From Mycolicibacterium smegmatis (GTDB lineage: Bacteria > Actinomycetota > Actinomycetes > Mycobacteriales > Mycobacteriaceae), in contig NZ_LN831039.1 in assembly GCF_001457595.1 (NCBI RefSeq), positions 4,920,001-4,952,000 on the forward strand: DNA of 32,000 bases, read 5' to 3'. Positions 585-26,046 of the stretch are shown here, piece by piece. The stretch's first letter is position 1, and each line of letters starts with the position of its first letter. The notes beneath the pieces were generated by a model that did not search any database, was not told where the DNA came from, and saw only the letters and a list, made by a program, of their open reading frames with translations. The translations under genes were made by a program, and so were the position numbers.

Positions 585-2240
585 TTGTCACAGATCCCCG
601 GGCGTCCCCTGCCGACGGTCACCGCGCTCAACGAGTACTTCTGGACCGCGGGCCGTGACGGCGTGCTGCGCATCCAGGAATGCCGGTCGTGCGGCGCGCT
701 GATCCATCCCCCGCAGCCGATCTGCCGCTACTGCCGCAGCCACGATCTCGGCGTCCGCGACGTGTCCGGGCGCGCGACGCTCGCGGGTTTCACGGTCAAC
801 GAGCGGTTCGGATTCCCCGATATGCCACCGCCGTACGTGGTGGCCGAGGTTGCGATCGTCGAGGATCCGCGGGTCCGGTTGACCACCAACATCGTCGACT
901 GCGACCCGCAGTCACTCGAGCTCGGACAACCGGTGGAGGTGTCCTTCCAGCACATCGATGACGTGTGGCTTCCGGTGTTCACCCCGTCGGCGGACACCAC
1001 GCCCACCCCGGCTCCGGTCGAGGACATCGCACCGCAGGACATCGGCAAGTTCGTCCGCCCGATGCTCACCGAGGACAAGTTCGAGGATCATTCCGCGATC
1101 ACTGGCATCGGCATGTCGAGGATCGGCAGGCGACTCATGGTGCCGCCGCTGTCGCTGACCATCGAGGCGGCCGAACGGGCCGTCGCCGACGCCGGTCTGA
1201 CGCTCGACGACATCGACGGGCTGTCCACGTACCCGGGCCTCGACATCGCCGGCATGGGCGAGGGCGGCGTCTCGGTCCTCGAAGGAGCCCTCGGGTTGCG
1301 CCCCACGTGGATCAACGGCGGTATGGACACCTTCGGCCCCGGCGGATCGGTGATCGCGGCGATGATGGCGATCTCGGCCGGGCTCGCGCGCCATGTGCTG
1401 TGCTTCCGCACGCTGTGGGAGGCCACCTTCGGCCAACTGGTCAAGGAGGGCAAGATGTCCCCTCCGATGAGCGCGCGTACCAACAGCTGGCAGCAGCCTT
1501 ACGGTGCCACGTCGGCCGCTCACACGTTGGCGCAGAACGCCGGACGCCACTTCCACCGGTACGGCACCACGCGCGAGACGCTGGGCTGGATCGCGCTCAA
1601 CCAGCGGGCCAACGCCGCGCTGAATCCCACCGCGATCTACCGCGAACCGCTGACCATGGAGGACTACCTCTCGGCACGCACCATCACCACGCCGTTCGGT
1701 CTCTACGACTGCGACGTCCCGTGCGACGGTGCGGTCGCGGTGATCGTCTCGGCCGTCGACGCCGCGCGCGATCTGCCCAAACCGCCCATCAGGTTCGAGG
1801 CCGTGGGCACCCAGATCATCGAGCGCCTCGACTGGGACCAGACCACACTCACCCACGAGCCTCAGGTGCTCGGTCAGAGTGCCCACATGTGGTCGCGAAC
1901 CTCGTTGCGGCCCAGCGATGTCGACGTGGCCGAGCTGTACGACGGTTTCACGTTCAACTGCCTGTCCTGGCTCGAGGGCCTGGGGTTCTGCGGTATCGGC
2001 GAGGCCAAGGACTTCCTCGACGGCGGCAGGAACATCGCGCGTGACGGGATCATCCCGCTCAACACCCACGGCGGGCAGCTCTCGCACGGCCGCACCCACG
2101 GCATGGGGCTCATCCACGAGGCCGTCACGCAGTTGCGCGGTGAGGCGGGCGAACGGCAGGTCGAGGATGCTCGGGTGGCGGTCGCCAGCAGCGGCGGACT
2201 GACCCCCAGCGGTGTCCTGTTGCTGCGGAGAGACGACTGA
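585..2240 (+). CDS. Fusion protein: DUF35-type zinc-ribbon/OB-fold domain plus thiolase-like (SCP-x/Ltp-like) domain, 551 aa
   Basis: TTG start. The N-terminus carries a CRSC-x10-CRYC zinc ribbon followed by an OB-fold-like segment. A Pro/Thr linker (TPSADTTPTPAPVE) follows. The thiolase-like domain ends with NTHGGQLSHGRTHGMG. Confidence 0.85.
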   Translation: MSQIPGRPLPTVTALNEYFWTAGRDGVLRIQECRSCGALIHPPQPICRYCRSHDLGVRDVSGRATLAGFTVNERFGFPDMPPPYVVAEVAIVEDPRVRLTTNIVDCDPQSLELGQPVEVSFQHIDDVWLPVFTPSADTTPTPAPVEDIAPQDIGKFVRPMLTEDKFEDHSAITGIGMSRIGRRLMVPPLSLTIEAAERAVADAGLTLDDIDGLSTYPGLDIAGMGEGGVSVLEGALGLRPTWINGGMDTFGPGGSVIAAMMAISAGLARHVLCFRTLWEATFGQLVKEGKMSPPMSARTNSWQQPYGATSAAHTLAQNAGRHFHRYGTTRETLGWIALNQRANAALNPTAIYREPLTMEDYLSARTITTPFGLYDCDVPCDGAVAVIVSAVDAARDLPKPPIRFEAVGTQIIERLDWDQTTLTHEPQVLGQSAHMWSRTSLRPSDVDVAELYDGFTFNCLSWLEGLGFCGIGEAKDFLDGGRNIARDGIIPLNTHGGQLSHGRTHGMGLIHEAVTQLRGEAGERQVEDARVAVASSGGLTPSGVLLLRRDD

Positions 2241-2242
2241 CC

Positions 2243-3139
2243 GTGGCGAGTTCGGACGGGACCGACCGATCGGCGCCGCATCCCCGCGTCGTCCTCGCCG
2301 ACGGCGTCCCGATGTCGGCCCTGGTCGCCAAGGCGCCCGAACCGCGTGCGGTGGTCGTGGCGCTGCACGGCGGGGCGACCACGTCGGCGTACTTCGATTG
2401 CCCTGGCCACCCGGAACTCTCACTGCTGCACGCGGGTGTGGCGGCCGGTTTCACGGTCGTCGCCCTCGACCGCCCGGGATACGGCGCGTCCGCACCGTAC
2501 CCGGAGGCCATGGCGCGTCCCGAACAACGCCTGGCGCTGGTGTTCGGTGCACTCGAACGGATCGTGGGCACGCAGGACCTGTTCCTGTTGGGGCACTCGG
2601 TGGGTTGTGAGCTCGCCGTGCGGATGGCCATCTCCGGTGCCCGCGTCGTGGGTATCTCGCTGGCAGGAACCGGGCGCCGGTATCAGTCCGCGGGGCGCGA
2701 CATCCTCAAAAACGCGTCGTCCGACCACCGTCCGCGTGGTCTGCGGGAGCTGCTGTGGGAGCCGGCCCGGCTGTATCCGCCCGACGTGCTCGGCAGCGGA
2801 TTGTCCTCGGGCGGCGCCGCGTACGAGGGTGATGTGGTCAAAACCTGGTCCTGGCAGGACTTTCCGCAACTCGCCGCGCTCGTGAAGGTTCCCGCCCAGT
2901 TCATCGCCGGTGACCACGAGAACGTGTGGGAGGCCGGCACCGACGCGTTGGCGGCCATCGGTGCGATGTTCACCGCGTCGCCGCGCGTGGACGTCGAGGT
3001 GCTGCCCGAGTCCGGCCACAACCTCAGCGTGGGCCACACCGCGGCCGAATATCACCAGCGGGTCTTGTCATTCGCCGCCGAGTGCCTGGATGTTCGGGCC
3101 ACCCGCGCCGGCACCGATGTGGAAGTGGAGGCAGGTTGA
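2243..3139 (+). CDS. Alpha/beta-fold hydrolase, 298 aa
   Basis: GTG start 3 nt after the upstream stop. It has the nucleophile elbow GHSVG, HGG near the N-terminus and a C-terminal ESGHN His motif. Confidence 0.85.
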   Translation: MASSDGTDRSAPHPRVVLADGVPMSALVAKAPEPRAVVVALHGGATTSAYFDCPGHPELSLLHAGVAAGFTVVALDRPGYGASAPYPEAMARPEQRLALVFGALERIVGTQDLFLLGHSVGCELAVRMAISGARVVGISLAGTGRRYQSAGRDILKNASSDHRPRGLRELLWEPARLYPPDVLGSGLSSGGAAYEGDVVKTWSWQDFPQLAALVKVPAQFIAGDHENVWEAGTDALAAIGAMFTASPRVDVEVLPESGHNLSVGHTAAEYHQRVLSFAAECLDVRATRAGTDVEVEAG

Positions 3140-3957
3140 TGCGAGTCGGATTCATCGGTCTGGGCAGTCAGGGGGCGCCGATGGCCCGCAGGATCGTCGA
3201 AGGCGGATTCGAGACGACACTGTGGGCGCGCAGGCCCGCATCGCTCGAGCCGTTCGCCGACACGGCCGCCAAGGTGGCGGGCACCCCGGCCGAACTCGCG
3301 GCGGCCAGCGATCTGGTGTGCCTGTGTGTGGTGGGCGACGACGACGTCAGAGAGGTCCTGGGTGGTGAGACGGGTGTGTTGGCCGGCCTGGCACCGGGCG
3401 GGATCATCGCGATCCACTCGACCGTGCACCCCGACACGTGCACCGAACTCGCGAAACAGGTTGCCGAAAAGGGTATTTCGCTCATCGACGCCCCGGTCAG
3501 CGGCGGTGAGCCCGCCGCCAAGGCAGGCACACTGCTGGTGATGGTCGGCGGTGACGAGGACATCGTGGACAAGGTCCGTCCCGTCTTCGCCACCTACGCC
3601 GATCCCATCGTCCGTCTCGGCGGCGTCGGCAGCGGTCAGGTCGCGAAAATCCTCAACAACCTGCTCTTCAGCGCCAATCTCGGGGCCGCGATGAGCGCGC
3701 TCGAACTCGGTGAGGCCCTCGGTGTCCCTCGCAACGCGCTGTGTGAGGTGATCACGCGCGGCTCGGCCAACAGCAAGGCACTGGGCAGCATCGCGATGTT
3801 CGGCGGCACGCTCGACAATCTCGCACCCATCGCCGGTGCGTTGCTGCAGAAGGACTGCAGGCACGCCGCAAGCCTGGCCGACGCCGCGTCGGCATCCCAG
3901 GGCGCGGTGTTCGACGCGGCCGACGAGGCCCTCCGCCTCATGGACGTCCCGCGCTGA
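3139..3957 (+). CDS. NAD(P)-dependent beta-hydroxyacid (3-hydroxyisobutyrate/6-phosphogluconate-type) dehydrogenase-like oxidoreductase, 272 aa
   Basis: MRVGFIGLGSQGAPMA is a Rossmann GxGxxG motif. DAPVSGG and the NNLL helix motif are present. The ATG shares one nucleotide with the upstream TGA (TGATG). Confidence 0.85.
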   Translation: MRVGFIGLGSQGAPMARRIVEGGFETTLWARRPASLEPFADTAAKVAGTPAELAAASDLVCLCVVGDDDVREVLGGETGVLAGLAPGGIIAIHSTVHPDTCTELAKQVAEKGISLIDAPVSGGEPAAKAGTLLVMVGGDEDIVDKVRPVFATYADPIVRLGGVGSGQVAKILNNLLFSANLGAAMSALELGEALGVPRNALCEVITRGSANSKALGSIAMFGGTLDNLAPIAGALLQKDCRHAASLADAASASQGAVFDAADEALRLMDVPR

Positions 3958-4748
3958 TGCGTATCGGTTTCCTCGGTGCCGGGCGCATGGGCGCCCCCAT
4001 GGTGCAGCGGCTCACCGCGGCAGGACACGATGTCCACGCACTCGGGCGCACGGACGAGAAACGAACCGCGGTAGCCGGATTGGGAGCCACACCCGTGGCC
4101 GCCGCCGCGGACGCCGTGCGCGACGCGGACGTCGTGATCGTATGCGTGTTCACCGACGAGCAGGTGCGCACTCTCTGCACGGATACTCTGCTCGACGCCA
4201 TGGCGCCGGGTGCGGCGCTGGTGCTGCACACGACGGGAAGCCCGCGCACGGCCGAGGACATCGCCGCACGCGCTGTGGACCGCGGCGTCGCGGTCGTCGA
4301 TGCGCCGGTCAGCGGAGGGCCGCACGACATCGCGGCCGGGTCGGTGACGGTGTTCGCCGGCGGCGACGCCGACGTCGTCGAGCGCGTCCGCCCCGCACTG
4401 GTCGCCTATGCCGAACCGCTCCTGCACGTCGGGCCGCTCGGCTCGGGCCAGCGCGTCAAGCTCGTCAACAACACGATGTTCGCGGCCCAGATCGGTGTGG
4501 TGGCCGAAGGCGTGCGACTGGCCCGTGAACTCGGTGTCGATGAGCCGACGGTGCTGTCAGCCCTCACGCACGGCAGCGCCGCGAGCCGTGCGCTGAGCGG
4601 GATCGCGGCGACCGGATCGGCCGAGGACTTCAAGGTCAGGGTCGGTGAGTTCATCGGCAAGGACGTCGCGGTGGTCCGCGCGACAGCCGCGGATCTCGGC
4701 GCCGACCTCGGGCTCCTTGACCATGCCGTCGACGCGGCACTGCGGTGA
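3957..4748 (+). CDS. Second, paralogous NAD(P)-dependent beta-hydroxyacid dehydrogenase-like oxidoreductase, 263 aa
   Basis: It has MRIGFLGAGRMGAPMV, DAPVSGG and KLVNN. A TGATG overlap joins it to the upstream paralogue. Confidence 0.8.
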   Translation: MRIGFLGAGRMGAPMVQRLTAAGHDVHALGRTDEKRTAVAGLGATPVAAAADAVRDADVVIVCVFTDEQVRTLCTDTLLDAMAPGAALVLHTTGSPRTAEDIAARAVDRGVAVVDAPVSGGPHDIAAGSVTVFAGGDADVVERVRPALVAYAEPLLHVGPLGSGQRVKLVNNTMFAAQIGVVAEGVRLARELGVDEPTVLSALTHGSAASRALSGIAATGSAEDFKVRVGEFIGKDVAVVRATAADLGADLGLLDHAVDAALR

Positions 4749-4888: not shown

Positions 4889-6091
4889 ATGACCACGCCC
4901 CAGATGATCTTCGATCCGTTCTCCGAGGAGTACTTCGAGAACCCCTTCGACATCTACCGTCAGATGCGCGACGACGCCCCGCTGTACTACGACTCCGAGC
5001 AGGACTTCTACGCACTGTCCCGCCACGAGGACGTCGCGGCCGCGCTGAAGGACCACGAGGCGTTCTCGTCGTCACGGGGATGCGACCTGGCGATGGTGAA
5101 GGGCGACGAACCGCCGCAGAAGTCGATCATCTTCATGGATCCGCCCGAGCACCGGCACATGCGCAGCCTGCTCAACAAGGCGTTCACACCGCGCGCGGTG
5201 CAGGCGCAACGCGACACCGTCGTCGAACAGGTCGAGCACTATCTCGGGCAGATCGACTCCGACGAGTTCGACGTCGTGCAGGATTTCTCGGGCCCGTTCC
5301 CGGTCGAGGTGATCACCCGCATGGCCGGCGTCGAGCCGGAATACCGCCAGCAGGTGCGGCACTGGATCGACACGAGCCTTTCGCGCGAACCCGGCCAGGT
5401 CGCATACTCCGAGGCCGGGATGAAGGCCAACATCGACACCGCGATGTACTACTACTCGCTGGTGCAGAAGCGCCGCGAGAACCCGCAGGACGACATGATC
5501 AGCCGGTTGATCGCCGCCGAGATCCCCGGTGAGAACGGGGAGATGCGCCGTCTCGACGACGTCGAGATCACCGGCTTCGCAACCCTTCTGGGTGGCGCGG
5601 GCGCCGAGACCGTCACCAAGCTGATCGGCACGGCAATGGTGACGTTCGCGAAGTTCCCCGACCAGTGGCAGAAGCTGCTCGACGACCGCAGCAAGGTGCC
5701 CGCGGCGGTCGAGGAACTCCTGAGGTACGAGGGACCCGTGCAGTACAACGTGCGCTACACGCTCAAGGAGGCGCGCGTGCCCAGCGGCACCATCCCGGCA
5801 GGCAAGCCGGTGTTCCTGCTCAAGGCGTCAGCCAACCGCGACGAGCGGGCGTGGACCGATCCCGACGTCTTCGACATCGACCGCGACCGCACCGAGGCGC
5901 AGAACCTCGGCCTCGGTTACGGCATCCACAGCTGCCTCGGCGCCGCACTCGCGCGTCTGGAGAGCACGATCGCCCTGGAGCGGCTGCTCGACTTCATGCC
6001 GCGCTACGAGGTCAAATGGGACGGCCTGCAGCGCGTCCACATGCAGAACGTCGCAGGCTACTCCCATGTGCCGGTGAAGGTGTTGCGTTGA
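4889..6091 (+). CDS. Cytochrome P450 (P450-1), 400 aa
   Basis: Strong SD (GGAGGAGGAG) lies before the ATG. It has the I-helix GGAGAETV, ExxR (ELLRYE) and the heme loop LGYGIHSCLGAALA. Confidence 0.95.
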   Translation: MTTPQMIFDPFSEEYFENPFDIYRQMRDDAPLYYDSEQDFYALSRHEDVAAALKDHEAFSSSRGCDLAMVKGDEPPQKSIIFMDPPEHRHMRSLLNKAFTPRAVQAQRDTVVEQVEHYLGQIDSDEFDVVQDFSGPFPVEVITRMAGVEPEYRQQVRHWIDTSLSREPGQVAYSEAGMKANIDTAMYYYSLVQKRRENPQDDMISRLIAAEIPGENGEMRRLDDVEITGFATLLGGAGAETVTKLIGTAMVTFAKFPDQWQKLLDDRSKVPAAVEELLRYEGPVQYNVRYTLKEARVPSGTIPAGKPVFLLKASANRDERAWTDPDVFDIDRDRTEAQNLGLGYGIHSCLGAALARLESTIALERLLDFMPRYEVKWDGLQRVHMQNVAGYSHVPVKVLR

Positions 6092-6291
6092 TGACCAAGA
6101 AGATTCACGTCGACTTGGGGCTGTGTGAGAGCAACGGCGTCTGCATGGGCGTCATCCCCGAGGTGTTCGACCTCGACGAGGAGGACTACCTGCACGTGCT
6201 CTCCGACGAGGTGACCCCGGAAAACGAGGCCCGCGTGCGCGACGCCGTGCGGCAGTGCCCGCGCCAGGCCATCTCGATCGACGAAGAGTGA
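6091..6291 (+). CDS. Single-cluster (3Fe-4S type) ferredoxin, 66 aa
   Basis: MTKKIHVDLGLCESNGVC...QCPRQAI matches CxxNxxC(x)nCP. The ATG shares one nucleotide with the P450 stop (TGATG). Confidence 0.9.
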   Translation: MTKKIHVDLGLCESNGVCMGVIPEVFDLDEEDYLHVLSDEVTPENEARVRDAVRQCPRQAISIDEE

Positions 6292-6313
6292 TCCCGCGCT
6301 AACGCGCGATCAC
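6288..6313. terminator. Hairpin spanning the stops of two convergent genes; candidate bidirectional terminator
   Basis: gtgatcccgcg-ctaa-cgcgcgatcac forms an 11-bp stem with one mismatch. On the + strand it is followed by cgTTTTg. Only 7 nt separate the two convergent stop codons. Confidence 0.45.
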
Positions 6314-7210
6314 CGTTTTGCCGAAACCCTCGATGGTCTCGAGCGCGTGCGCCAGGCTGTCCCCCGGGATCGTGACGTGCAGCCAGGTCACGCCGAGCGC
6401 GGCGAGTTGGTCGACGCCCGCGAGGTAGGCGTCGGCGTCGAAATCGTCGTCACCGGGGTTGCCGCCGTCGAAGTTGGTGAACACGATGTCCACCGTCGAC
6501 GGGTCGCGTTGGGCGGCATCGAGTTTGGTCCGCAGATCAGCGATCCCGGCTGTGAGCCTCTCGATCGAGTCGATCGCGGCGGTACCCGCGGTCTGCGCAA
6601 GCCCGGGCGGTGCGGCGAACGGGCACCAGCCGTCGCCGTGCCTGGCGACGCGCGCCCTGGCGGCCGCGGTGTTGCCGCCGATCCAGATCGGTGGCGGGTT
6701 CACCGGGCGGGGGTGCGCGGTGACGCCCCTGGCACTGAAATGCTTTCCCTGGTAGGTGAAGTCATCGGTGGTCCAGATGCCGCGGATGACCTCGAGGGAT
6801 TCATCGAACAACTCGGTGCGTTCGTCGAACGTCACCCCGAGTGCGGCGAACTCGCGTTTGAGGTAACCCACCCCGACCGCGAGCGTGAACCGCCCGCCCG
6901 AGAGCAGGTCGAGTGTCGCACCGGATTTGGCCACCACGAACGGGTTGCGGTACGGCAGCACCACGATGTTGGGTACCAGCCGCAGGGTGGTGGTCTGCGC
7001 GGCGGCGTACGCCATCGCCACGAACGGGTCGACGGCGTCGTGCCCACCGGCATCGAGCCAACGTTGTGACGGCGCCGGGTGATCGGTGAAGCCGAACCCG
7101 TCGAAACCGGCGGCCTCGGCCGCTGCTGCCACCGCCGCCACGCCGGACCCGCTGACGAGGTCCGGGTGGTAGGGGTGGCTGTGCATCGGGTGTGTGATGC
7201 TGTAGCGCAC
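6299..7210 (-). CDS. LLM-class (luciferase-like) F420-dependent oxidoreductase family protein, 303 aa
   Basis: GTG start. TIM-barrel LLM signatures are present (..FGFTDHP.., LLSGGRFTLAVGVGY, PIWIGG). The family assignment is by eye. Confidence 0.8.
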   Translation of the reverse strand: MRYSITHPMHSHPYHPDLVSGSGVAAVAAAAEAAGFDGFGFTDHPAPSQRWLDAGGHDAVDPFVAMAYAAAQTTTLRLVPNIVVLPYRNPFVVAKSGATLDLLSGGRFTLAVGVGYLKREFAALGVTFDERTELFDESLEVIRGIWTTDDFTYQGKHFSARGVTAHPRPVNPPPIWIGGNTAAARARVARHGDGWCPFAAPPGLAQTAGTAAIDSIERLTAGIADLRTKLDAAQRDPSTVDIVFTNFDGGNPGDDDFDADAYLAGVDQLAALGVTWLHVTIPGDSLAHALETIEGFGKTVIAR

Positions 7211-7225: not shown

Positions 7226-7516
7226 TCAGGACGAAAAGCCCGAGAGGATGACCCCGTTGCAGTCGGCGACACTCTGCCGGATCTTGGCGGCGGCCTGGTA
7301 GGCGTCGGAGAAGTACCACTCGCGGGCGGCCTCGACCGACGGGAACTCCAGCACCACGGTCTGGGTGCCGTGCCAGGTGCCCTCGACCACCTCGGCCTTC
7401 TGGTCGACGGCGAGGATCGTCGCGCCTCCCATGGTGGGACCCGCGGCCTTCGCGTACTCGGCCATGCCTGCCGGGTCCTTGATGTCCTCGGTGATGATCA
7501 CATAGCCCTTGGGCAC
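7226..7516 (-). CDS. DUF1330 family protein, 96 aa
   Basis: GTG start with AAGGAG about 10 nt upstream. MPKGYVIITEDIKDP...FPSVEAAREWYFSDAYQ is typical of DUF1330. Confidence 0.75.
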   Translation of the reverse strand: MPKGYVIITEDIKDPAGMAEYAKAAGPTMGGATILAVDQKAEVVEGTWHGTQTVVLEFPSVEAAREWYFSDAYQAAAKIRQSVADCNGVILSGFSS

Positions 7517-7558: not shown

Positions 7559-7747
7559 TCAGAGTTTGTGGATCGCGCTCTCGGGACAGCAGTCGATGGC
7601 TTCCCGGACTGCGGCCTCGTGCTCGGCGGGGACCTCCCCGGCAGCGGCCACCGCCCAGCCATCGTCGGACAGTTCGAAGACCTCCGGGCACAGTGTCAGG
7701 CACATGCCGTGGCCTGCGCACCGGTCCTCGTCGACGGCGACCTTCAT
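7559..7747 (-). CDS. Single-cluster (3Fe-4S type) ferredoxin, 62 aa
   Basis: MKVAVDEDRCAGHGMC...DCCPESAI matches CxxHxxC(x)nCP. The ATG overlaps the P450-2 stop (ATGA). Confidence 0.9.
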   Translation of the reverse strand: MKVAVDEDRCAGHGMCLTLCPEVFELSDDGWAVAAAGEVPAEHEAAVREAIDCCPESAIHKL

Positions 7748-9021
7748 TTCACATCGAACTCCAGGTGCAGGTGGGTGAGCCCACGCAGGATGAACGTCGG
7801 GATGTACTTGTAGTCCCGATTGGCCGCCGGACCGTGGTGTTCCTCGGAGATCCGGATGTCGGTGGTGCGGTCGAGCAGTCGCTCCAGTCCGACGCGGGTC
7901 TCGGCACGGGCCAGCGGCGCGCCCGGGCAGCTGTGGATGCCACGGCCGAACGCCAGATGCTGGCGGGCGTTCTTGCGGGCCGGGTCGAAATCGTCGGGGT
8001 TCTCGAACCGGCGCGGGTCCCGGTTGGCCGCGCCGTTGACCACCATGACGGTACGGCCCGAGGGCAAGTCCTTGTCCCCCACCGTGACCGGGCAACGGGA
8101 GAGCCGGAAATCGCCCTTGACCGGACTCTCGTGGCGCAGCGCCTCTTCGATGAAGTTCGGCAACAGGCTGCGGTCCTCGCGCACCATCTTCTGCACGTCC
8201 GGCCGGTCTCCCAGTACCTTGAGCGCGGTGCCGAGCAGTCGGACCGTGGTCTCCTGACCCGCCGAGAAGACATTGGTGGCCACCCGTGCGACGTCGCCGG
8301 GGCTCGGGGTGGTGCCGTCTGGGAACAGTGCGGTGGCCATCCCCGTGAGGATGTCCTCGCGAGGGTTACTGCGCCGGTCCTCGATGTACGCCTCGAACTG
8401 GCCGTAGAGGAATTCCAGCGGGCTGTGCGACAGCGACTCGTCACCGGTGCTGCCCACGCCGCCGCCGGAGTTCTGCGAGATGCCGTCGACGAACGCGTTG
8501 CGGTCCTCGGCGGGGATGCCCAGCAGGTCCGCGATCACCAGCAGGGTGAACGGGCTGGCGAAGCCCTTGATGAACTCGCCCTTGCCCGGCGCCAGGAAAT
8601 CGTCGAGCACCTCGTCGGCCAGCTGCCACATCGCGTCCTCGTTCTCCTTGAGGCGCTTGGGCGTGATCAGCCGCATCATCAGCGAGCGGTGGTTGGTGTG
8701 CACCGGCGGGTCCAGGGTGGGCAGCTGATCGCTGAACGGCAGCTCGTCGCGGTGCTTCTCGATGAGTTCGGCGACGTCGTCGCGGCCCTCCAGCGGCACC
8801 GGGAAGCCGGGGAACGGCCCGGTGACCGAGGTGCATGAGGAGAAGCTCTTCTCGTCGTTGTAGACCGAGACAGCCTCCTCCCAGCCGGTCACCATGGTCA
8901 CCCCGTAGTGATCCTCGGACTGCACGGGGCACTTGTCCCGCAACGCGTTGAAATACGGGTACGGGTCGTCGACCAGCCGGGGGTCCTTGAACCAGTCGAT
9001 ACCGGCGGGATCGATCGCCAT
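7744..9021 (-). CDS. Cytochrome P450 (P450-2), 425 aa
   Basis: It starts at MAIDPAGIDWF. It has the I-helix SAGQETTV, ExxR (EALRHE) and the heme loop FGRGIHSCPGAPLA. The upstream 58 codons of the listed ORF lie in AT-rich promoter DNA. Confidence 0.92.
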   Translation of the reverse strand: MAIDPAGIDWFKDPRLVDDPYPYFNALRDKCPVQSEDHYGVTMVTGWEEAVSVYNDEKSFSSCTSVTGPFPGFPVPLEGRDDVAELIEKHRDELPFSDQLPTLDPPVHTNHRSLMMRLITPKRLKENEDAMWQLADEVLDDFLAPGKGEFIKGFASPFTLLVIADLLGIPAEDRNAFVDGISQNSGGGVGSTGDESLSHSPLEFLYGQFEAYIEDRRSNPREDILTGMATALFPDGTTPSPGDVARVATNVFSAGQETTVRLLGTALKVLGDRPDVQKMVREDRSLLPNFIEEALRHESPVKGDFRLSRCPVTVGDKDLPSGRTVMVVNGAANRDPRRFENPDDFDPARKNARQHLAFGRGIHSCPGAPLARAETRVGLERLLDRTTDIRISEEHHGPAANRDYKYIPTFILRGLTHLHLEFDVK

Positions 9022-9055
9022 ATGTGTCACTCCGTTTCCTGACGGACTCAGACGT

Positions 9056-9074
9056 ATGAGAACGTGCCTCTCAT
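9056..9074. promoter_or_regulatory. Operator-like dyad ATGAGAA-CGTGC-CTCTCAT (GAGAA-N5-TTCTC family, one arm mismatch)
   Basis: It lies 35 nt upstream of the P450-2 start, in the divergent gap shared with the EBP-like gene. It is related to the sites at 23722, 30522, 31322 and 31524. Confidence 0.45.
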
Positions 9075-9170
9075 TGTTGAGTATTACATTTCCACAGCGC
9101 CGCTTCGCCGTCAACGAGGGCAAACGCCTGATCGTTCCGCTCAACATGCCACATTCGGAAACGGGATTCT

Positions 9171-9198
9171 CCAATGTTGTGCATTCGCTCAACATTGG
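9171..9198. promoter_or_regulatory. Perfect 9-nt inverted repeat CCAATGTTG-N10-CAACATTGG
   Basis: It is seen directly in the sequence, about 57 nt upstream of ATG 9255. Related CTCAACA(T/A)TG copies occur at 9072-9081 (reverse orientation) and 9140-9149. The 10-mer CGCTCAACAT is repeated at 9138-9147 and 9186-9195. Confidence 0.4.
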
Positions 9199-9254
9199 CT
9201 GGTCGAACGCATATCGTCAGCTCAGTTGCCGCCGCGGCACGGACAGGACACGCC

Positions 9255-10034
9255 ATGACATCCGACATCGCGACACCGGCCCCGACCGCCGGCGAACCCG
9301 ACCTGGCCCGTCCCTGGGCACCGCACCGCCGCAAGGCCTACGTCGCCCTCACTGCGATGACCGGTTTCGCCTTCACGATCGCGGTCGTCGGGGTCGGCAC
9401 CGGTCTGCTGCCGCCCACCTTCACCGTCGACGTCATCGCCAACCTGGCGTTCGGCCTGCCGGTGATCGTGCTGCCGCTGGTCTACTTCTGGACCGGCCGG
9501 GGTGAGCAGCGCTCGCGTCTGCAACGCGCCTCGGAGCTGACGATGATCTACCTGCCCTACACCGCGGGCAGCCAACTCGGCTACGAGACCATCTTTCTGA
9601 TCGGCCATCCGATGAACTGGTGGACACCGACCACCGACCCGGGCTGGAAGTGGCTCTGGTGGCAGTACGGCCTGGCCGACACCCGCTACACCAGTGGCAA
9701 CGCCTGGATCTTCGGGCTGGAACTGGTCGGCGTGGTGACCGGCACGCTGCTGTTCATCGTGTGGATCCGCTTGATGCGCAGCGATTTACCGGTCGAGTCC
9801 CGGATCAAGAGCCTGTGGCTCGCCTTCACCGGATGCGCGATGCTGATCAGCAGCACCGCGGTGTACTTCCTGTCCGAGGTGCGCGCCGGGTTCGACGACA
9901 TCGGTCAGGGGGCCTTCGGGCTCTGGTTCAAATTCATCGCCGAGAACGTGCCGTTCATGATCCTGCCGTTCTTCGCCCTGATCGCGATGTATCGCCAGAT
10001 CGACCATCTCAGCCGCCGGGCAGGCCCTCGGTAG
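9255..10034 (+). CDS. Polytopic membrane protein resembling the EBP / EXPERA family (emopamil-binding protein, sterol delta8-delta7 isomerase-like), 259 aa
   Basis: It has several hydrophobic segments. LWWQYGLADTRY, GLELVG and YFLSEVRAGF...GLWFKF parallel human EBP LWKEYAKGDSRY, CMETIT and YFLTEHRDGF...LYFWFYF (human sequence recalled from memory). The start is uncertain (ATG 9255 preferred; 9174 possible). Confidence 0.7.
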   Translation: MTSDIATPAPTAGEPDLARPWAPHRRKAYVALTAMTGFAFTIAVVGVGTGLLPPTFTVDVIANLAFGLPVIVLPLVYFWTGRGEQRSRLQRASELTMIYLPYTAGSQLGYETIFLIGHPMNWWTPTTDPGWKWLWWQYGLADTRYTSGNAWIFGLELVGVVTGTLLFIVWIRLMRSDLPVESRIKSLWLAFTGCAMLISSTAVYFLSEVRAGFDDIGQGAFGLWFKFIAENVPFMILPFFALIAMYRQIDHLSRRAGPR

Positions 10035-10120: not shown

Positions 10121-10780
10121 GTGGTCGCATCACCGCGCAACACCGAAGCTGACCGGGGTCAGCGCCGGGCGACCTTCCAGCGCGCCAACTCCCACACCAC
10201 CAAGCAGATGCTGGTCCATGCGGCCATGGCGTTGTGGCGGACCAACGGCTACGCCAACACCACGGTGGCCGAGATCTGCCGGGGCGCCGGGGTCTCCAAG
10301 GCGTTGTTCTACTTCTACTTCCCGCGTAAGGAAGACGTGCTCTTCGAGGTGGGCGTGATGTCCACCCGCTCAGCCCAGCGCACCATCGCGAAGCTGCTGG
10401 CCGACGACTACGACGTCATGACCGTCGTCGGCGCCGCACTGACCGCCCTGGAACGCTCGATGAGCAGCAATCCGCGCGAGTTGGTCATCGAGACCATCCT
10501 GGAGGGGTACCGGCACGAGCACCGACTGCTGGCCACGGGAGAGAACCGTCCCGATCTGGACGGCGGCATGTTCACCACCCTGTTCGCCCGCGCGGTGGCC
10601 GACGGCAAACTTCCCGCCGGCACCGACACCGACCGCCTGGTCCATCTGGCCATGATGATGGTCAGCGAGGGCGCCCGGCATTGGGCCGCAGGCGCTTTCG
10701 GCGCCCGTTCCTTCGCCGACGTCGTCGCCTCCGACATCGCCACCCTGATCGCAGGCAGCACCGGACGAAGGAGACCGTGA
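10121..10780 (+). CDS. TetR/AcrR family transcriptional regulator (TetR-A), about 219 aa
   Basis: The HTH region is TKQMLVHAAMALWRTNGYANTTVAEICRGAGVSKALFYFYFPRKEDVL. GTG 10121 is the first start in frame that keeps helix 1, but the start is uncertain. The stop overlaps the next ATG (TGATG). Confidence 0.75.
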   Translation: MVASPRNTEADRGQRRATFQRANSHTTKQMLVHAAMALWRTNGYANTTVAEICRGAGVSKALFYFYFPRKEDVLFEVGVMSTRSAQRTIAKLLADDYDVMTVVGAALTALERSMSSNPRELVIETILEGYRHEHRLLATGENRPDLDGGMFTTLFARAVADGKLPAGTDTDRLVHLAMMMVSEGARHWAAGAFGARSFADVVASDIATLIAGSTGRRRP

Positions 10781-12081
10781 TGGCATGGGATTTCGAGACC
10801 GACCCGGAGTTCGCCGAACTCCTGGACTGGGTGGACACCTTCGTCCGCGACGAAGTCGAGCCGCTGGACCTGGTGTGGCCGCATCTGCAGTTCACGCCTC
10901 TGAACGAGGTACGCCGGCAGGTGGTGGACCCGCTCAAGGAGCAGGTGCGCCGAAAAGGCCTGTGGGCCACCCATCTCGGCCCCGAACTCGGTGGTCAGGG
11001 ATACGGGCAGCTGAAATTGGCGCTGCTCAACGAGATCCTGGGCCGGTCGCAGTGGGCGCCCATCGTGTTCGGCTGCCAGGCACCCGATACCGGCAACGCC
11101 GAGATCATCGCGCACTACGGCACCGAGGAGCAGAAGCAACGCTATCTGCGGCCCCTGCTCGACGGTGAGGTGTTCTCCTGTTATTCGATGACCGAGCCGC
11201 ACGCGGGCGCGGACCCGACGCTGTTCACCACGCGCGCCGTCCGCGACGGGGACGACTGGGTGATCAACGGCTGGAAGTTCTTCTCCTCCAACGCCGCCAC
11301 CGCGTCGTTCCTCATCGTCATGGTCGTCACCAACCCCGATGTCAGCGCCTATCAGGGCATGTCGATGTTCCTGGTGCCCACCGACACCCCCGGCGTCGAG
11401 ATCGTGCGCAACGTCGGCCTGTACGGCGAGCGCGACAACGAGGGATCGCACGCGCTGATCCACTACGACAACGTGCGGGTACCCGCCGAAGCTCTGCTGG
11501 GCGGTGAGGGGCAGGCGTTCGTCATCGCCCAGACCCGCTTGGGCGGCGGGCGAATCCACCACGCCATGCGCACGATCGGCCTCGCACGCAAGGCGCTCGA
11601 CATGATGTGCGAACGCGCGCTGAGCCGCAAGACACAGGGAAGCCGTCTGTCCGACAAGCAGTTCGTGCAGGGCTACATCGCCGACTCGTATGCGCAACTG
11701 CTGCAGTTCCGGCTGATGGTGCTCTACACCGCGTGGGAGATCGACAAGTACAACGACTACAAGTTGGTCCGCAAGGACATCGCCGCGGTCAAGGTCGTCA
11801 TGCCGACAGTCCTGCACGACATCGCATGGCGCGCGATGCAGGTGCACGGCGCCCTCGGTGTCACCAACGAAATGCCGTTTCTCGGGATGGTCACAGGCGC
11901 GGCCGTCATGGGCCTGGCCGACGGCCCCACCGAAGTGCACAAGACCACCGTGGCCAAGCAGGTGCTGCGCGACCACGAGGCCACCGAGGACACCTGGCCG
12001 ACCGAATGGATACCCCGCAAGCGCGAGGAGGCGCGGGCCAAACTCGCCGACTACCTGGACAACGAGGTGGGCAATCTGTGA
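10780..12081 (+). CDS. Acyl-CoA dehydrogenase family protein of the FadE2 / ACAD10-11 C-terminal-domain type, 433 aa
   Basis: It has MAWDFETDPEF..., SMTEPHAGADPT and TRLGGGRIHHAMR, which I recall as characteristic of this subfamily. It is translationally coupled on both sides. Confidence 0.88.
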   Translation: MAWDFETDPEFAELLDWVDTFVRDEVEPLDLVWPHLQFTPLNEVRRQVVDPLKEQVRRKGLWATHLGPELGGQGYGQLKLALLNEILGRSQWAPIVFGCQAPDTGNAEIIAHYGTEEQKQRYLRPLLDGEVFSCYSMTEPHAGADPTLFTTRAVRDGDDWVINGWKFFSSNAATASFLIVMVVTNPDVSAYQGMSMFLVPTDTPGVEIVRNVGLYGERDNEGSHALIHYDNVRVPAEALLGGEGQAFVIAQTRLGGGRIHHAMRTIGLARKALDMMCERALSRKTQGSRLSDKQFVQGYIADSYAQLLQFRLMVLYTAWEIDKYNDYKLVRKDIAAVKVVMPTVLHDIAWRAMQVHGALGVTNEMPFLGMVTGAAVMGLADGPTEVHKTTVAKQVLRDHEATEDTWPTEWIPRKREEARAKLADYLDNEVGNL

Positions 12082-13103
12082 GCGCACCGGACATCGACAC
12101 CCCGCGCCTCGCCGAGTGGATGGACGGCGCGGGGCTGCCGGGCAAGGGTGAGCCGCTGACCGCGCGCTTCCTGTCCGGCGGTACGCAGAACGTCATCTAC
12201 GAACTGCGCCGCGGCGACGAGCGCTGCGTGCTGCGCATGCCACCCCCGGGCGCGCCGCCCGACCGCGACAAGGGCATCCTGCGCGAGTGGCGCATCATCG
12301 CCGCGCTCGACGGCACCGACGTGCCGCACACCGAGGCCGTCGCCATGTGCGAGGACCCGAGCGTGCTCGGTCGGCCGTTCTACCTGATGGGGTTTGTCGA
12401 GGGGTGGTCCCCCATGGATCGGCACGGTGTGTGGCCCGAACCTTTCAACAGCGACCTGGGTACCCGCCCCGGCCTGAGTTATCAACTGGCCGAGGGCATC
12501 GCGCTGCTGTCCAAGGTCGACTGGCGCGAGCGGGGGCTGGCCGACCTGGGACGCCCCGAAGGTTTTCACGACCGGCAGGTCGATCGCTGGATCGCATTCC
12601 TCGAACGGATAAAACGCCGCGAGCTACCCGGCTTGAAGGTCGCCACCGACTGGCTGCGGGCGCACAAACCGCTCGACTACATCCCCGGCCTCATGCACGG
12701 CGACTACCAGTTCGCCAACGTGATGTACCGGCACGGCGCCCCCGCCACACTGGCCGCCATCGTCGACTGGGAGATGGGCACCGTCGGTGACCCCAAACTC
12801 GACCTCGCCTGGATGGTGCAGAGTTGGCCGACCGGCGAAGACACCGGCGGAATGGATTACGTCGACATGCGTGGCATGCCCGCACGTGACGACGTCGTCG
12901 CCCACTACGCCGAGGTGTCGGGCCGTCAGGTCGACGATCTGGACTACTACCTGGTGTTGGCCAAGTGGAAGCTCGCGATCGTGCTGGAGCAGGGTTTCCA
13001 GCGTGCGGGCGACGACGAGAAGCTTCTTGCGTTCGGACCGGTGGTGACAGGCCTGATGGCCTCGGCGGCCGAACTGGCCGAATCGACCGACTACCGGGGC
13101 TGA
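12078..13103 (+). CDS. Phosphotransferase (APH/choline-kinase fold) family protein of the ACAD10-11 N-terminal kinase type, 341 aa
   Basis: The GTG start overlaps the ACAD stop (GTGA). It has the catalytic loop LMHGDYQFANVMY (HGDxxxxN) and the metal-binding IVDWE. Confidence 0.87.
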   Translation: MSAPDIDTPRLAEWMDGAGLPGKGEPLTARFLSGGTQNVIYELRRGDERCVLRMPPPGAPPDRDKGILREWRIIAALDGTDVPHTEAVAMCEDPSVLGRPFYLMGFVEGWSPMDRHGVWPEPFNSDLGTRPGLSYQLAEGIALLSKVDWRERGLADLGRPEGFHDRQVDRWIAFLERIKRRELPGLKVATDWLRAHKPLDYIPGLMHGDYQFANVMYRHGAPATLAAIVDWEMGTVGDPKLDLAWMVQSWPTGEDTGGMDYVDMRGMPARDDVVAHYAEVSGRQVDDLDYYLVLAKWKLAIVLEQGFQRAGDDEKLLAFGPVVTGLMASAAELAESTDYRG

Positions 13104-13104
13104 C

Positions 13105-14079
13105 GTGCGCGCAGCCGTCTGCCCCCGGTACGGGCCACCCGAGGTAGTCCGCGTCGAGGAGTTGCCTGCGCCTGAACTCGGGCCCGATCAGGTGCGGGTG
13201 CGTGTCGGTGCTGCCGCGGTGAACTTTCCCGACGTGTTGCTCGTGGCCGACAGGTACCAGGTGACCGTGCCCGTGCCGTTCGTCCCTGGCAGTGAATTCT
13301 CCGGGGTGGTGACCGAGATCGCCGACGGTGTCACGGATTTCGTAGTCGGCGACCGGGTGGTCGGTACCGCAATGCACGGCGCGTTCGCCGAGGAGGTGTG
13401 TGTCGACGCATCCTGTCTGCAGCGCGCCGTCGAGCGCCTCGGCGACCGTGGCGCCGCCGCGTCCGGCGTCGCGCACCGCACCGCGTTCCACGCGCTGCGG
13501 TCGGTCGCCCGGGTCTCCACGGGCGACGACGTTGTCGTGCTTGGCGCGGGCGGCGGCGTCGGCCTGGCCGCGGTGCAGCTCGCCGCGGCACTCGGCGCCC
13601 GGGTGACCGCGGTGGCGTCGTCAACCGAAAAACTCGATGCCGCAGCACGATACGGTGCACACCACCTCGTCGACCACACAGCCGGTTCACTCCGCGCGGC
13701 ACTGCGCGACGCCGTTCCCGGAGGGGCCGACGCGGTGCTCGACCCGGTCGGCGGCGATCTCTCCGAACCCGCGTTGCGCGCGTTGCGCCGCGGCGGGCGG
13801 TTCGTCACCATCGGCTTCGCGTCAGGCGCCATCCCCCGGATACCACTGAACCTCGTGCTGGTGAAGGGCGTGCAGATCCTGGGCTTCGCGTTCCAGGACG
13901 TGCCGCCGGAGGAATTCGCGCGCAACGAATCCGAGCTCGGCGAACTGCTGGCGTCCGGCGCCGTGACGCCGCACATCGGTGCGGTCTATCCCCTCGCCGA
14001 GGTCGCTGCCGCGCTGCGGCATGTCGCCGAGGGACGCGCCGTGGGCAAGGTGGTCCTGGACGTCTCTGGCGTCCGATGA
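13105..14079 (+). CDS. MDR-superfamily NADPH:quinone oxidoreductase / enoyl reductase-like protein, 324 aa
   Basis: GTG start 1 nt after the upstream stop. It has VNFPDVL, PGSEFSGVV and the nucleotide motif VLGAGGGVGLAAVQLA. Confidence 0.87.
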   Translation: MRAAVCPRYGPPEVVRVEELPAPELGPDQVRVRVGAAAVNFPDVLLVADRYQVTVPVPFVPGSEFSGVVTEIADGVTDFVVGDRVVGTAMHGAFAEEVCVDASCLQRAVERLGDRGAAASGVAHRTAFHALRSVARVSTGDDVVVLGAGGGVGLAAVQLAAALGARVTAVASSTEKLDAAARYGAHHLVDHTAGSLRAALRDAVPGGADAVLDPVGGDLSEPALRALRRGGRFVTIGFASGAIPRIPLNLVLVKGVQILGFAFQDVPPEEFARNESELGELLASGAVTPHIGAVYPLAEVAAALRHVAEGRAVGKVVLDVSGVR

Positions 14080-15409: not shown

Positions 15410-15913
15410 TCAGCTGGCGGTGATCAGGTCGGCGGGCACCGAGCGGCTGAGCATGGTGCCGGTGCGGAACGCCTCGGTGCTGCCGACGGAGCCGGCGTCG
15501 GGGTGATTGGCCGCGGTGAGCGCCTGGGCCTTGAACGCGCGTGCGGCAGCGGACAGTTCGTGATGGGCGGGACAGACGCGCAGGTCTGACGGACACTCGT
15601 CGCCCCACAGCGTGACCTCGGTGAGGCCCTGCTCCAGCGCGCCGAGCACACCGTGGCGCACACGCTTGTCGGTGTTGAACAGATCGGCCGCGACCGCGAC
15701 GGTCTGCGGGTGCGGACGGTCCTGCCACGACCTGAGCACGCTCTCGAGGTCCATGGCCTCGACACCGAGGATCTCCAAGGGGCGCACGTTCTCGTCGCGG
15801 TCGATCAGCACCGTGACGTCCCAGCCGGCCATCACCCGGTCGACGAGCCAGCCTCCCGCGTACCGCACCGCGTCGATCACGCACGGGGCGACCACATCGA
15901 GTCGATACCTCAT
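15410..15913 (-). CDS. Hypothetical protein, 167 aa, translationally coupled to TetR-B
   Basis: The ATG overlaps the TetR-B stop (ATGA). Codon usage is consistent with its neighbours. I recognise no domain (MRYRLDVVAPCVIDAVRYAGGWLVDR...). Confidence 0.6.
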   Translation of the reverse strand: MRYRLDVVAPCVIDAVRYAGGWLVDRVMAGWDVTVLIDRDENVRPLEILGVEAMDLESVLRSWQDRPHPQTVAVAADLFNTDKRVRHGVLGALEQGLTEVTLWGDECPSDLRVCPAHHELSAAARAFKAQALTAANHPDAGSVGSTEAFRTGTMLSRSVPADLITAS

Positions 15914-22217: not shown

Positions 22218-23513
22218 TCAGTCCCGTGCGCCCGAGACCGCTTTGGCGTTGGTCTGGAAGTCGGCGAAGCTGGCGCCGGTCTTGTCCTTCTTGCTGAGCG
22301 CCCGGATCGAGACGTCGTGGCCCTCGGCGGCTTTGCGCAGCGCACCGACGTTGGCCTGCTCCTTGGGCACGTGGGCGAACGGGTCGAAGTGGTAGAGCCG
22401 CATGGCGTTCTCGTGGGTGATCTTGTTGATCTCGTCGTCGGGCACGTCGTAGGTGTCGAACACCGCCGACAGTTCCTCGGGCGCGCCCGGCCACATGGAA
22501 TCGCTGTGCGGGTAGTCCATTTCCCAGCAGATGTTGTCGATGCCGATCATGTGGCGGTTCTTCACCCCGACCGGGTCGGAGATGAAGCACGTCATGAAGT
22601 GCTCGCGGAACACCTCGCTGGGCAGCTTGCCGCCGAAGTTCTGGTGGGTCCACGTCGAGTGCATCTCGAAGGTGCGGTCCACGCGGTCCAGGAAGTACGG
22701 GATCCACCCGGTGCCGCCCTCGGACAGTGCGATCTTCAGCGTCGGGAACTCCTTGATGGGCGCCGACCACAGCAGGTCGGCCGCGGCCTGCACGATGTTC
22801 ATGGGCTGCAGCGTGATCATGACGTCCATCGGCGCGTCGGGTGCGGTGATCGCCAGCTTGCCCGACGACCCGATGTGCACGTTCATCACGGTCTCGGTGT
22901 CCACGAGCGCCTGCCACAACGGGCGCCAGTACTCCAGGTCGTGGAACGACGGATAACCCAGCGTCGAGGGATTCTCGGTGAAAGTCAGTGAGTGCACACC
23001 TTTTTCGGCCACCCGGCGCACCTCGGCGGCGGCCAATCCAGGATTCCAGATCGCCGGGATCGCCATCGGGATGAACCGGCCCGGATTCGAGGCGCACCAC
23101 TCGTCGATGTGCCAGTCGTTGTACGCCTGGACCAGGGCCAGCGAGAACTCCTCGTCGTCGGTGGCGAACAGGCGCGCGGCGAAACCGGGGAACGACGGGA
23201 AGTTCATGGTCGCCAGCACGCCACCGGCGTTCATGTCCTTGACCCGCTCGTTCGGGTCGTAGCAGCCCTTGCGGATCTCGTCGAGGCCCTGCGGTTCGAG
23301 GCCGTACTCCTCCTTCGGCCGGCCCGCGACGGCGTTGAGCGCGACGTTGGGGATCACGGTGTCGCGGAACTGCCAGGTATCCGAGCCGTCGGGGTTGTGT
23401 ACCAACCGCGGTGCCTCGTCGCGGTACTTGGCGGGCAGATGATTCTTGAACATGTCCGGTGGCTCGATGATGTGGTCGTCCACGCTGATGAGGATCATGT
23501 CGTCTTTGTTCAT
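22218..23513 (-). CDS. Amidohydrolase_2 (ACMSD/PF04909-like) metal-dependent hydrolase family protein, 431 aa
   Basis: GGAG lies 7 nt before ATG 23513. It has MNKDDMILISVDDHIIEPPDMF, VQAYNDWHIDEW, and the MNVHIGSS, EGGTGW and MDYPHSD motifs. Confidence 0.87.
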   Translation of the reverse strand: MNKDDMILISVDDHIIEPPDMFKNHLPAKYRDEAPRLVHNPDGSDTWQFRDTVIPNVALNAVAGRPKEEYGLEPQGLDEIRKGCYDPNERVKDMNAGGVLATMNFPSFPGFAARLFATDDEEFSLALVQAYNDWHIDEWCASNPGRFIPMAIPAIWNPGLAAAEVRRVAEKGVHSLTFTENPSTLGYPSFHDLEYWRPLWQALVDTETVMNVHIGSSGKLAITAPDAPMDVMITLQPMNIVQAAADLLWSAPIKEFPTLKIALSEGGTGWIPYFLDRVDRTFEMHSTWTHQNFGGKLPSEVFREHFMTCFISDPVGVKNRHMIGIDNICWEMDYPHSDSMWPGAPEELSAVFDTYDVPDDEINKITHENAMRLYHFDPFAHVPKEQANVGALRKAAEGHDVSIRALSKKDKTGASFADFQTNAKAVSGARD

Positions 23514-23700
23514 GACTGCTCTCCGTTCCGGCGAAGGGTTGCGGACTTCGACCATGCGGCACGGCGCACCGCACACGCTTCTCTCTGTCAGGAAACTATC
23601 TTCTCCATAGACGAGAATCAATGTCTGATGTCGCTGACGAGCATCTTCAGCCTGGTCACGCGCACACGCGAGCAGTTGCCATTGACCATCGGCCGAAAAG

Positions 23701-23740
23701 ATGGAAACCTGTTAGTCGTAAATGAGAACCTGATTCTCAT
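23701..23740. promoter_or_regulatory. Tandem operator-like sites: degenerate ATGGAAACCTGTTAGTCGT followed by the dyad ATGAGAA-CCTGA-TTCTCAT
   Basis: The 7-nt perfect arms are at 23722-23740. The adjacent 19-mer at 23701-23719 is 13/19 identical to it. An everted TTCTC-N7-GAGAA lies at 23601-23617. All are in the 281-nt divergent gap between the amidohydrolase operon and the CMD/Rieske operon. Confidence 0.5.
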
Positions 23741-23794
23741 GGACGAGAGTTGAAGCTGACAGCAGCAGCGTGAGCGCCGAGAGGAGAGCCGTCC

Positions 23795-24325: not shown

Positions 24326-24360
24326 GCCCTGAACGGCTCGACAGAGAAAGTAGGTAGAAA

Positions 24361-26044: not shown

Positions 26045-26046
26045 GG

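Follow-up and report, generated by a model that had tools for sequence, protein, structure and literature searches.

By profile-level sequence comparison, a 259-aa membrane protein encoded by Mycolicibacterium smegmatis is a true, divergent bacterial member of the EXPERA/EBP superfamily, resembling human emopamil-binding protein (EBP) far beyond chance. Its gene occupies positions 9255–10034 (+) of the 32,000-nucleotide (nt) stretch analyzed here (assembly GCF_001457595.1, contig NZ_LN831039.1, positions 4,920,001–4,952,000; hereafter the window), and belongs to a Gln-type actinobacterial clade that is small and mostly mycobacterial. It stands head-to-head with a cytochrome P450 operon inside a large catabolic locus. 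We give about an even chance to the reading that the protein is a membrane-embedded acid–base enzyme that would shift a double bond, or open or rearrange an epoxide, on a product of the P450.

Single-sequence searches left the relationship below threshold. The protein matches Pfam PF05241 with 17 bits (E 0.0079; gathering score 25.7) over profile positions 4–113 of 113 (residues 133–245), and a search against the PDB returned a chance match to villin only (E 0.13). The sole NCBIfam match, to the carotenoid hydratase CruF (E 0.003, 17 bits against a cut-off of 300, 52 residues), was rejected as noise.

At the profile level the homology is clear. A profile of 34 mycobacterial homologues, run against all PDB sequences, gave human EBP (6OHT) as its sole real match (E 9.5e-5), aligning residues 128–241 of the window protein with EBP 99–209. 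When an alignment of 27 bacterial relatives was compared with one of 22 vertebrate EBPs, hhalign reported a probability of 99.0% (E 3e-18) over 200 aligned columns, pairing residues 46–256 with human EBP ∼20–222 and covering all five EBP helices. PF05241 is matched by 25 of 40 full-length diverse representatives of the family (14–55% identity; E up to 0.01, best 1.7e-25). Thus, the initial annotation, which had proposed an EXPERA/EBP homologue from motifs recognized by eye, is borne out by profile comparison, although the single-sequence Pfam match falls short of the gathering score.

The shared motif blocks listed in that annotation are all present, and profile tools reproduced their alignments. 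The segment LWWQYGLADTRY (residues 134–145) pairs with EBP LWKEYAKGDSRY, GLELVG with CMETIT (Glu156 with Glu122), YFLSEVRAGF..GLWFKF with YFLTEHRDGF..LYFWFYF, and SQLGYE with IHLVIE (Gln107 with His76, Glu111 with Glu80). The human EBP sequence used in the comparison is 100% identical over its full length to a database protein. The label "eukaryote-type", on the other hand, was misleading: the nearest relatives form a Gln/Glu-type clade of bacteria, whereas the search reaches eukaryotic EBPs only in its tail. The family is small: when 1.84 billion representative proteins were searched exhaustively with the profile, only 148 scored at E ≤ 0.001.

In the mechanism proposed for human EBP by Long et al., His76 protonates C9, Trp196 stabilises the C8 cation, and Glu80, aided by Glu122, takes the C7 proton, with Asn193 lining the site; the His76Ala and Glu80Ala mutants are inactive (PMC6549186). 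The hhalign mapping places Gln107 at His76, Glu111 at Glu80, Asp142 at Asp108, Glu156 at Glu122, Val160 at Thr126, Glu230 at Met192, Asn231 at Asn193, and Phe234 at Trp196. Among the residues expected of an EC 5.3.3.5 enzyme, the Glu80/Glu122 pair and Asn193 are therefore represented, whereas His76 and Trp196 are not. Because His76 is replaced by Gln, the canonical His-initiated mechanism is impossible as written.

These assignments are strongly conserved. Among 120 close homologues (60–90% identical overall), Gln107, Asp142, Arg144, Tyr145, Glu156, Val160, Glu208, and Glu230 are identical in all 120, Glu111 in 119, and Asn231 in 117; position 234 is Phe in 104 and Tyr in 16, so that an aromatic residue is always retained. 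The reading of the EBP His-x3-Glu pair as Gln-x3-Glu, made by eye in the initial annotation, is thereby upheld. In 40 distant relatives (14–55% identity), Asp142 is kept in all 40, and Glu111, Glu156, and Asn231 in 37 each. The His76 position is more variable in this set (15 Gln, 15 His, and 4 Glu), Trp196 is retained in 35, and Glu230 is confined to the window protein's immediate clade. Judged by this conservation, the Gln/Glu-type clade keeps the acidic pair under strong constraint.

AlphaFold2 (AF2) modelled the protein with a pLDDT of 75 from a shallow alignment, and with a pLDDT of 92.7 and a pTM of 0.86 from a 71-sequence alignment. The latter model has helices at 23–48, 56–78, 88–117, 130–146, 150–173, 180–210, and 219–256, that is, six long ones and a short loop helix that carries the WQYGLADTRY motif. 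On the hhalign mapping, helices 2–6 and the loop helix, which bears the W..Y..D.RY motif, correspond to EBP transmembrane helices 1–5 and H1, and helix 23–48 is extra.

Lys and Arg residues number 4, 4, 3, and 4 in the even loops (15 in total) and 0, 2, and 1 in the odd loops (3 in total), and by the positive-inside rule the Trp-rich loop should face outward and the two ends of the chain the cytoplasm. The protein is thus predicted to have six transmembrane helices with cytoplasmic N- and C-termini, in the same orientation as EBP with its lumenal H1, a topology compatible with the EBP homology put forward at the outset. Actinobacterial PF05241 proteins have six transmembrane regions on average (PMC9903846), in agreement with the window protein.

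Human EBP (PDB 6OHT, 6OHU) shares the five helices, the loop helix, and the predicted placement of the C-terminus inside and the Trp-rich loop outside, but it has five helices rather than six, is only ∼20% identical, and works in sterol synthesis in the endoplasmic reticulum, whereas the window gene has a catabolic context. Foldseek searches of the PDB with both models (pLDDT 75 and 93) gave no significant match; we read this null as insensitivity to an all-helical membrane protein and not as evidence against homology, and the predicted fold stays structurally unconfirmed.

The gene call itself is secure. The open frame spans 9174–10034 (+), and a longer product starting at 9174 was rejected since independent gene calls and homologue N-termini, which align at the same Met, both favour the start at 9255 (MTSD...). 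GCA_029221935.1 and many metagenome assemblies carry a called gene for the identical 259-aa protein; among named genomes, Mycobacterium sp. Root265 and Mycolicibacterium frederiksbergense come closest (90–91% identity). The G+C content at third codon positions (GC3) is 0.87, the same as in neighbouring genes, and so gives no sign of recent foreign origin; on this ground and because the nearest relatives are bacterial, we rejected a recent transfer from eukaryotes. A search of a plasmid collection found no homologue.

The P450 start (9021) and the EXPERA start are separated by a 233-nt gap (9022–9254), confirming the head-to-head arrangement with a P450/ferredoxin/DUF1330/F420-oxidoreductase operon described in the initial annotation. 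The first operon gene (7744–9021, −; Pfam p450) encodes a CYP150-family P450 whose best solved relative is CYP150A6 (PDB 6DCD, E 3.2e-151). A small ferredoxin (7559–7747, −; Pfam Fer4_15 and Fer4_13) with the CxxHxxC cluster motif CAGHGMC overlaps the P450 stop by 4 nt, and a DUF1330 protein (7226–7516, −; E 2.2e-29) follows as a conserved third gene, found in the same position in 18 loci. The last gene (6299–7210, −) encodes an F420-dependent luciferase-like oxidoreductase (LLM; TIGR03619, 283.6 bits against a cut-off of 166.9). It is lineage-specific: it ends the operon only in the window's own species (L001–L004), and its absence from that position in other loci of the same layout marks it as a recent, non-core addition.

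The intergenic region (9022–9254) contains two palindromes, and both are kept in most of 12 aligned orthologous regions. The first, GAGAACGTGCCTCTC (9058–9072), adjoins the P450 start and has GAGAA and TCTC as invariant columns in the 12 regions. The second, CCAATGTTGTGC-attc-GCTCAACATTGG (9171–9198), lies ∼57 nt 5' of the EXPERA start codon, has 12-nt arms that are 92% complementary, and is kept as ATGTTGAGCGTTCGCTCAACAT in L005–L026. We detected neither a sigma-70 consensus promoter nor an intrinsic terminator in the 233-nt gap, and no terminator was predicted in the interval between the EXPERA gene and the TetR gene that follows it. From these sequence features, a shared, repressor-controlled divergent promoter region is plausible, and the palindromes are candidate repressor operators, probably for one of the TetR regulators.

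To assess linkage, we compared 80 species-level genome loci, locating neighbour orthologues by tblastn and clustering called neighbours; 76 of these loci have a called EXPERA open reading frame, three of them being repeats of the locus in the window. Of the 73 species-level loci, 31 have a P450 gene directly beside the EXPERA gene, and 54 have a P450, Rieske, or LLM gene no more than four genes away. The variety of arrangements, with at least four P450 layouts, is a stronger argument for linkage than these counts.

In the layout of the window (type A, ∼24 loci), a CYP150–ferredoxin–DUF1330 operon diverges from the EXPERA gene at a distance of 176–320 nt, with TetR, acyl-CoA dehydrogenase (ACAD), APH-family kinase, and reductase genes downstream; the CYP150 orthologues in these ∼24 genomes are 89–95% identical among close relatives. 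In type B (nine loci: L032, L040, L052, L063, L066, L067, L069, L081, and L085), the EXPERA gene directly follows an orthologous P450up–ferredoxin pair on the same strand, with gaps of 4–105 nt, and the P450 is 78–84% identical to the window's second P450 (4889–6091, +). Genes found at 15.4–19 kb in the window come after the EXPERA gene in type B, so the window layout resembles type B with two extra modules flanking the EXPERA gene. A conserved protein of ∼167 aa without a Pfam match, encoded at 15410–15913 (−) in the window, recurs (cluster c11) in type B loci, where its gene comes directly after the EXPERA gene.

Type C (at least 12 loci) has an aldehyde dehydrogenase gene immediately upstream of the EXPERA gene, divergent from genes for a Rieske oxygenase, an amidohydrolase, and a MarR regulator. 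The Rieske and amidohydrolase families of type C sit at 22–27 kb in the window, and the TetR–ACAD–APH block lies 3–8 kb downstream in type C. As the Rieske and Amidohydro_1 families adjoin an EXPERA paralogue there, the contexts look like rearrangements of one supercluster. Further P450 layouts are co-directional (L017, L019) or convergent (L042, L046, L047, L072). The linkage to the P450 operon that the initial annotation had singled out therefore holds in part: this CYP150 operon accompanies the gene in about one third of species-level genomes, and elsewhere its place is taken by the P450up–ferredoxin pair or by Rieske oxygenase and aldehyde dehydrogenase genes.

The fold family, the strictly kept buried acidic pair, and the recurring monooxygenase partners are why we favour a proton-initiated carbocation enzyme. 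Its substrate would be a lipophilic compound of the pathway or an oxygenase product, probably alicyclic, isoprenoid-like, or steroid-like. The Glu pair would protonate a double bond or an oxygenase-made epoxide, a carbocation-like state would be held within the aromatic cavity, and a double-bond isomer, rearranged product, or diol would be released to downstream dehydrogenases and CoA enzymes. The TetR regulator downstream would probably control both divergent units through the two palindromes. Since the catalytic His is missing and the gene sits beside P450s in a lipid-degradation cluster, the protein probably reshapes oxygenase products in the membrane and makes no sterols. Mammalian EBP has been reported as a component of cholesterol-5,6-epoxide hydrolase.

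By description, the closest functional analogy is with the plant EBP-family melianol-oxide isomerases ISM1 and ISM2, which rearrange an epoxide made by the P450 CYP88A154 (PMC9999417). These are likewise EBP-family enzymes that act directly after a P450 through proton-initiated cationic chemistry, but they are recent duplicates of plant sterol isomerases (45–53% identical to At8,7SI), eukaryotic, and biosynthetic (limonoids and quassinoids), and for the window's CYP150 the formation of an epoxide is hypothetical.

The partner P450 offers, by analogy, a hint at the substrate. In Mycobacterium marinum, Fdx8, which has the same CxxHxxC motif as the CYP150-linked ferredoxin of the window, supports CYP150A5, which hydroxylates the cyclic isoprenoid β-ionone at C4, and the cluster that pairs CYP190A3/Fdx7 with CYP150A5/Fdx8 (PMC6237146) is mirrored in the window by the CYP150 with its His-type ferredoxin and the second P450 with its Asn-type ferredoxin. 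The window P450 is nearest CYP150A6 among solved structures, whereas the M. marinum cluster has CYP150A5. CYP150 has also been linked to pyrene degradation (PMC10301208).

Several points weigh against an enzymatic role. Gln107 is no proton donor and His76Ala EBP is inactive, so catalysis would need another, hypothetical acid. Conserved acidic residues are also kept in EXPERA proteins without known enzymatic activity, such as TMEM97. Of the 76 loci in which an EXPERA gene is called, 19 have no oxygenase among the four nearest genes, and the linkage counts overstate independence because many of the 73 loci are orthologous. For every member of the clade, the case for an enzyme draws on sequence, context, and analogy.

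The alternative that survives best is a non-catalytic, lipid-binding EXPERA protein of the TMEM97/TM6SF2 kind, which would hand substrate to or from the soluble P450s or serve in uptake or sensing. No close homologue keeps the proposed catalytic His, the Trp196 position has only the weaker Phe or Tyr, several paralogues occur per genome in varied contexts, and a membrane protein beside soluble P450s that need lipophilic substrates is consistent with such a role. However, four buried charged or polar residues and the invariant Glu230 are strictly kept at 60–90% identity, which fits chemistry better than neutral-lipid binding, and the EXPERA members with a characterised P450 partnership are all enzymes; we therefore consider a pure binder rather unlikely.

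The sigma-2 receptor/TMEM97 and TM6SF2, of the same Pfam superfamily, have no known enzymatic activity; like the window protein they are without the EBP His, and acidic residues serve them to bind sterol-like ligands. They differ in being eukaryotic and in having four helices or a duplicated EXPERA domain. Neither protein is among the matches of the mycobacterial profile to the PDB.

We consider it improbable that the protein is unrelated to the adjoining pathway and owes its placement to a region that is dense in P450 genes and often rearranged. Between species, the CYP150 module and the TetR–ACAD–APH block do come and go, the region is mosaic, and the 19 loci without a nearby oxygenase fit this view. 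Yet the gene stays in the same supercluster while the surrounding modules change, it is operon-terminal after the P450up–ferredoxin pair in the nine type B genomes, and homologues at 19–22% identity elsewhere again adjoin Rieske, FMO-like, or P450 oxygenases.

Finally, a sterol Δ8–Δ7 isomerase role, that of an EBP orthologue acting on made or scavenged sterols, is very improbable: superfamily membership, the equivalents of Glu80, Glu122, and Asn193, the role given in silico to myxobacterial homologues (PMC10152446), and a His-type relative encoded between squalene epoxidase and CYP51 genes speak for it, but the position of His76, essential in EBP, is Gln in all close homologues, Trp196 is Phe or Tyr, the annotated window genes include no sterol-synthesis enzymes, the partner P450 is a CYP150 and not a CYP51, and the CYP51-linked relative is distant (E 8.5e-9).

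Returning to the membrane-enzyme reading, we extend it tentatively to the whole Gln/Glu-for-His EXPERA clade, whose members may be membrane partners of catabolic monooxygenases (P450, Rieske, and FMO-like) that act on alicyclic terpenoid-like or steroid-like lipids, opening or rearranging their oxygenase-made epoxides or shifting double bonds in their rings. If true, a bacterial EXPERA protein would for the first time have an enzymatic function and the fold a catabolic role, and the plant P450-plus-ISM logic of epoxidation and rearrangement would have a counterpart in bacteria.

Distant relatives were found in related settings. P0393 (244 aa; L089), which clusters at 90% identity with P0245 (19% identical to the window protein), is encoded divergently from genes for a Rieske oxygenase, an FAD-binding dehydrogenase, an SDR, an NAD-binding dehydrogenase, and a CMD protein, and is followed directly by APH, then LLM, acyl-CoA synthetase, and ACAD genes, a gene set strikingly similar to that of the window. 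P0214 has an FMO/Baeyer–Villiger-like monooxygenase gene next downstream, and P0150 (30% identical; L093) is followed by a TetR gene, as in the window. The neighbourhoods of P0179 (which looks eukaryotic), P0197, P0237, and P0261 were uninformative.

Bacterial His-type EBPs (L096 and myxobacteria) are likewise P450-adjacent and keep the same Glu, Asp, and Glu, with Asn in most (Thr in P0206); they differ in keeping His-x3-Glu and Trp196, in passing the Pfam threshold, and in lying between squalene epoxidase and CYP51 genes. Homologues from myxobacteria have been assigned in silico to sterol synthesis (PMC10152446). P0206, a distant His-type family member, is encoded at L096 between a squalene-epoxidase homologue and CYP51. 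On this short metagenomic contig, the three genes (1251–4544) are co-directional and overlap or nearly abut, and the locus looks like a compact bacterial sterol-synthesis operon.

The family has not gone unnoticed: homologues are already named "emopamil-binding protein" in NCBI and UniRef, and EBP homologues in mycobacteria have been mentioned before (PMC9903846, PMC4818103). In the searchable literature we found no functional study of a bacterial EXPERA protein, in line with the statement in the initial annotation that none had been functionally characterised, and no description of the His-to-Gln clade, its extra helix, the way it differs from His-type relatives linked to CYP51, or its conserved position within a catabolic supercluster of P450 and Rieske genes.

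EXPERA proteins such as EBP, the sigma-2 receptor, and TM6SF2 are medically important, and nearly all work on them is eukaryotic; no bacterial function is known beyond presumed sterol synthesis. The clade is cheap to test, being small and found in culturable soil mycobacteria with defined P450–ferredoxin operons, one of them from a family (CYP150) for which test substrates are known. An enzyme without the canonical histidine would reveal a route by which the EBP cavity is adapted to new carbocation chemistry, and would fill in a membrane step in the breakdown of terpenoid, steroid-like, or polycyclic compounds by mycobacteria; a binder would provide a bacterial model for sigma-2-type ligand recognition.

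The wider locus, described in the initial annotation as rich in steroid-style CoA enzymes, does contain many CoA enzymes, of beta-oxidation type by annotation. From its annotated gene content, it is a large catabolic supercluster for a hydrophobic substrate, with three P450s, a Rieske oxygenase, dehydrogenases, a hydrolase, and beta-oxidation-type CoA enzymes. No sterol-synthesis gene (squalene epoxidase, oxidosqualene cyclase, or CYP51) occurs among the annotated window genes, all of which are of catabolic types.

Upstream of the EXPERA gene, the second P450 is followed by a ferredoxin with the CxxNxxC motif CESNGVC (6091–6291, +), the pair spanning 4889–6291 by Pfam, gene calls, and the ferredoxin motif; also upstream lie a DUF35–thiolase fusion, a hydrolase, and two NAD-binding dehydrogenases. 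On the 3' side, 87 nt beyond the EXPERA gene, comes the TetR-family regulator (10121–10780, +; Pfam TetR_N), a candidate binder of the palindromes. Next are the ACAD (10780–12081, +), the APH-family kinase, which overlaps it by 4 nt (12078–13103, +), and an MDR/quinone-oxidoreductase-type reductase (13105–14079, +), all three assigned by Pfam and NCBIfam. More than 35 loci have this ACAD–APH–reductase block (10780–14079) at 0.2–8 kb on the downstream side of their EXPERA gene. The ACAD–APH pair itself accompanies the EXPERA gene in many genomes, and the pairing recalls the split ACAD10/ACAD11 and the LvaA/LvaC 4-hydroxyacyl-CoA module.

The third P450 (14206–15396, +; Pfam p450 E 5.8e-31) has 58–64% identical relatives that are convergent with, and just downstream of, EXPERA paralogues in L042, L046, and L072. 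Beyond it come another TetR, an ACAD, a thiolase, a CoA-transferase, and an SDR, then an amidohydrolase, a CMD protein, the Rieske oxygenase, a second amidohydrolase, a SnoaL-like protein, an ACAD, an enoyl-CoA hydratase, and a TetR. The block at 22218–27694 within this series comprises Amidohydro_2, CMD, the Rieske oxygenase alpha subunit, Amidohydro_1, and the SnoaL-like protein.

Type C loci also contain an AveC-like "spirocyclase" membrane protein with a divergent TetR (PF17198, E 5e-98; L034 11418–12614, and other type C loci), and genes for a CbbQ/NorQ-type AAA ATPase and a VWA protein recur beside EXPERA paralogues. Some genomes carry at least two EXPERA paralogues, as in L022 and L024 (one contig, ∼13 kb apart) and L038 and L064 (one metagenome-assembled genome), which recalls a clinical Mycobacterium isolate reported to have three EBP homologues on a single genomic island (PMC4818103).

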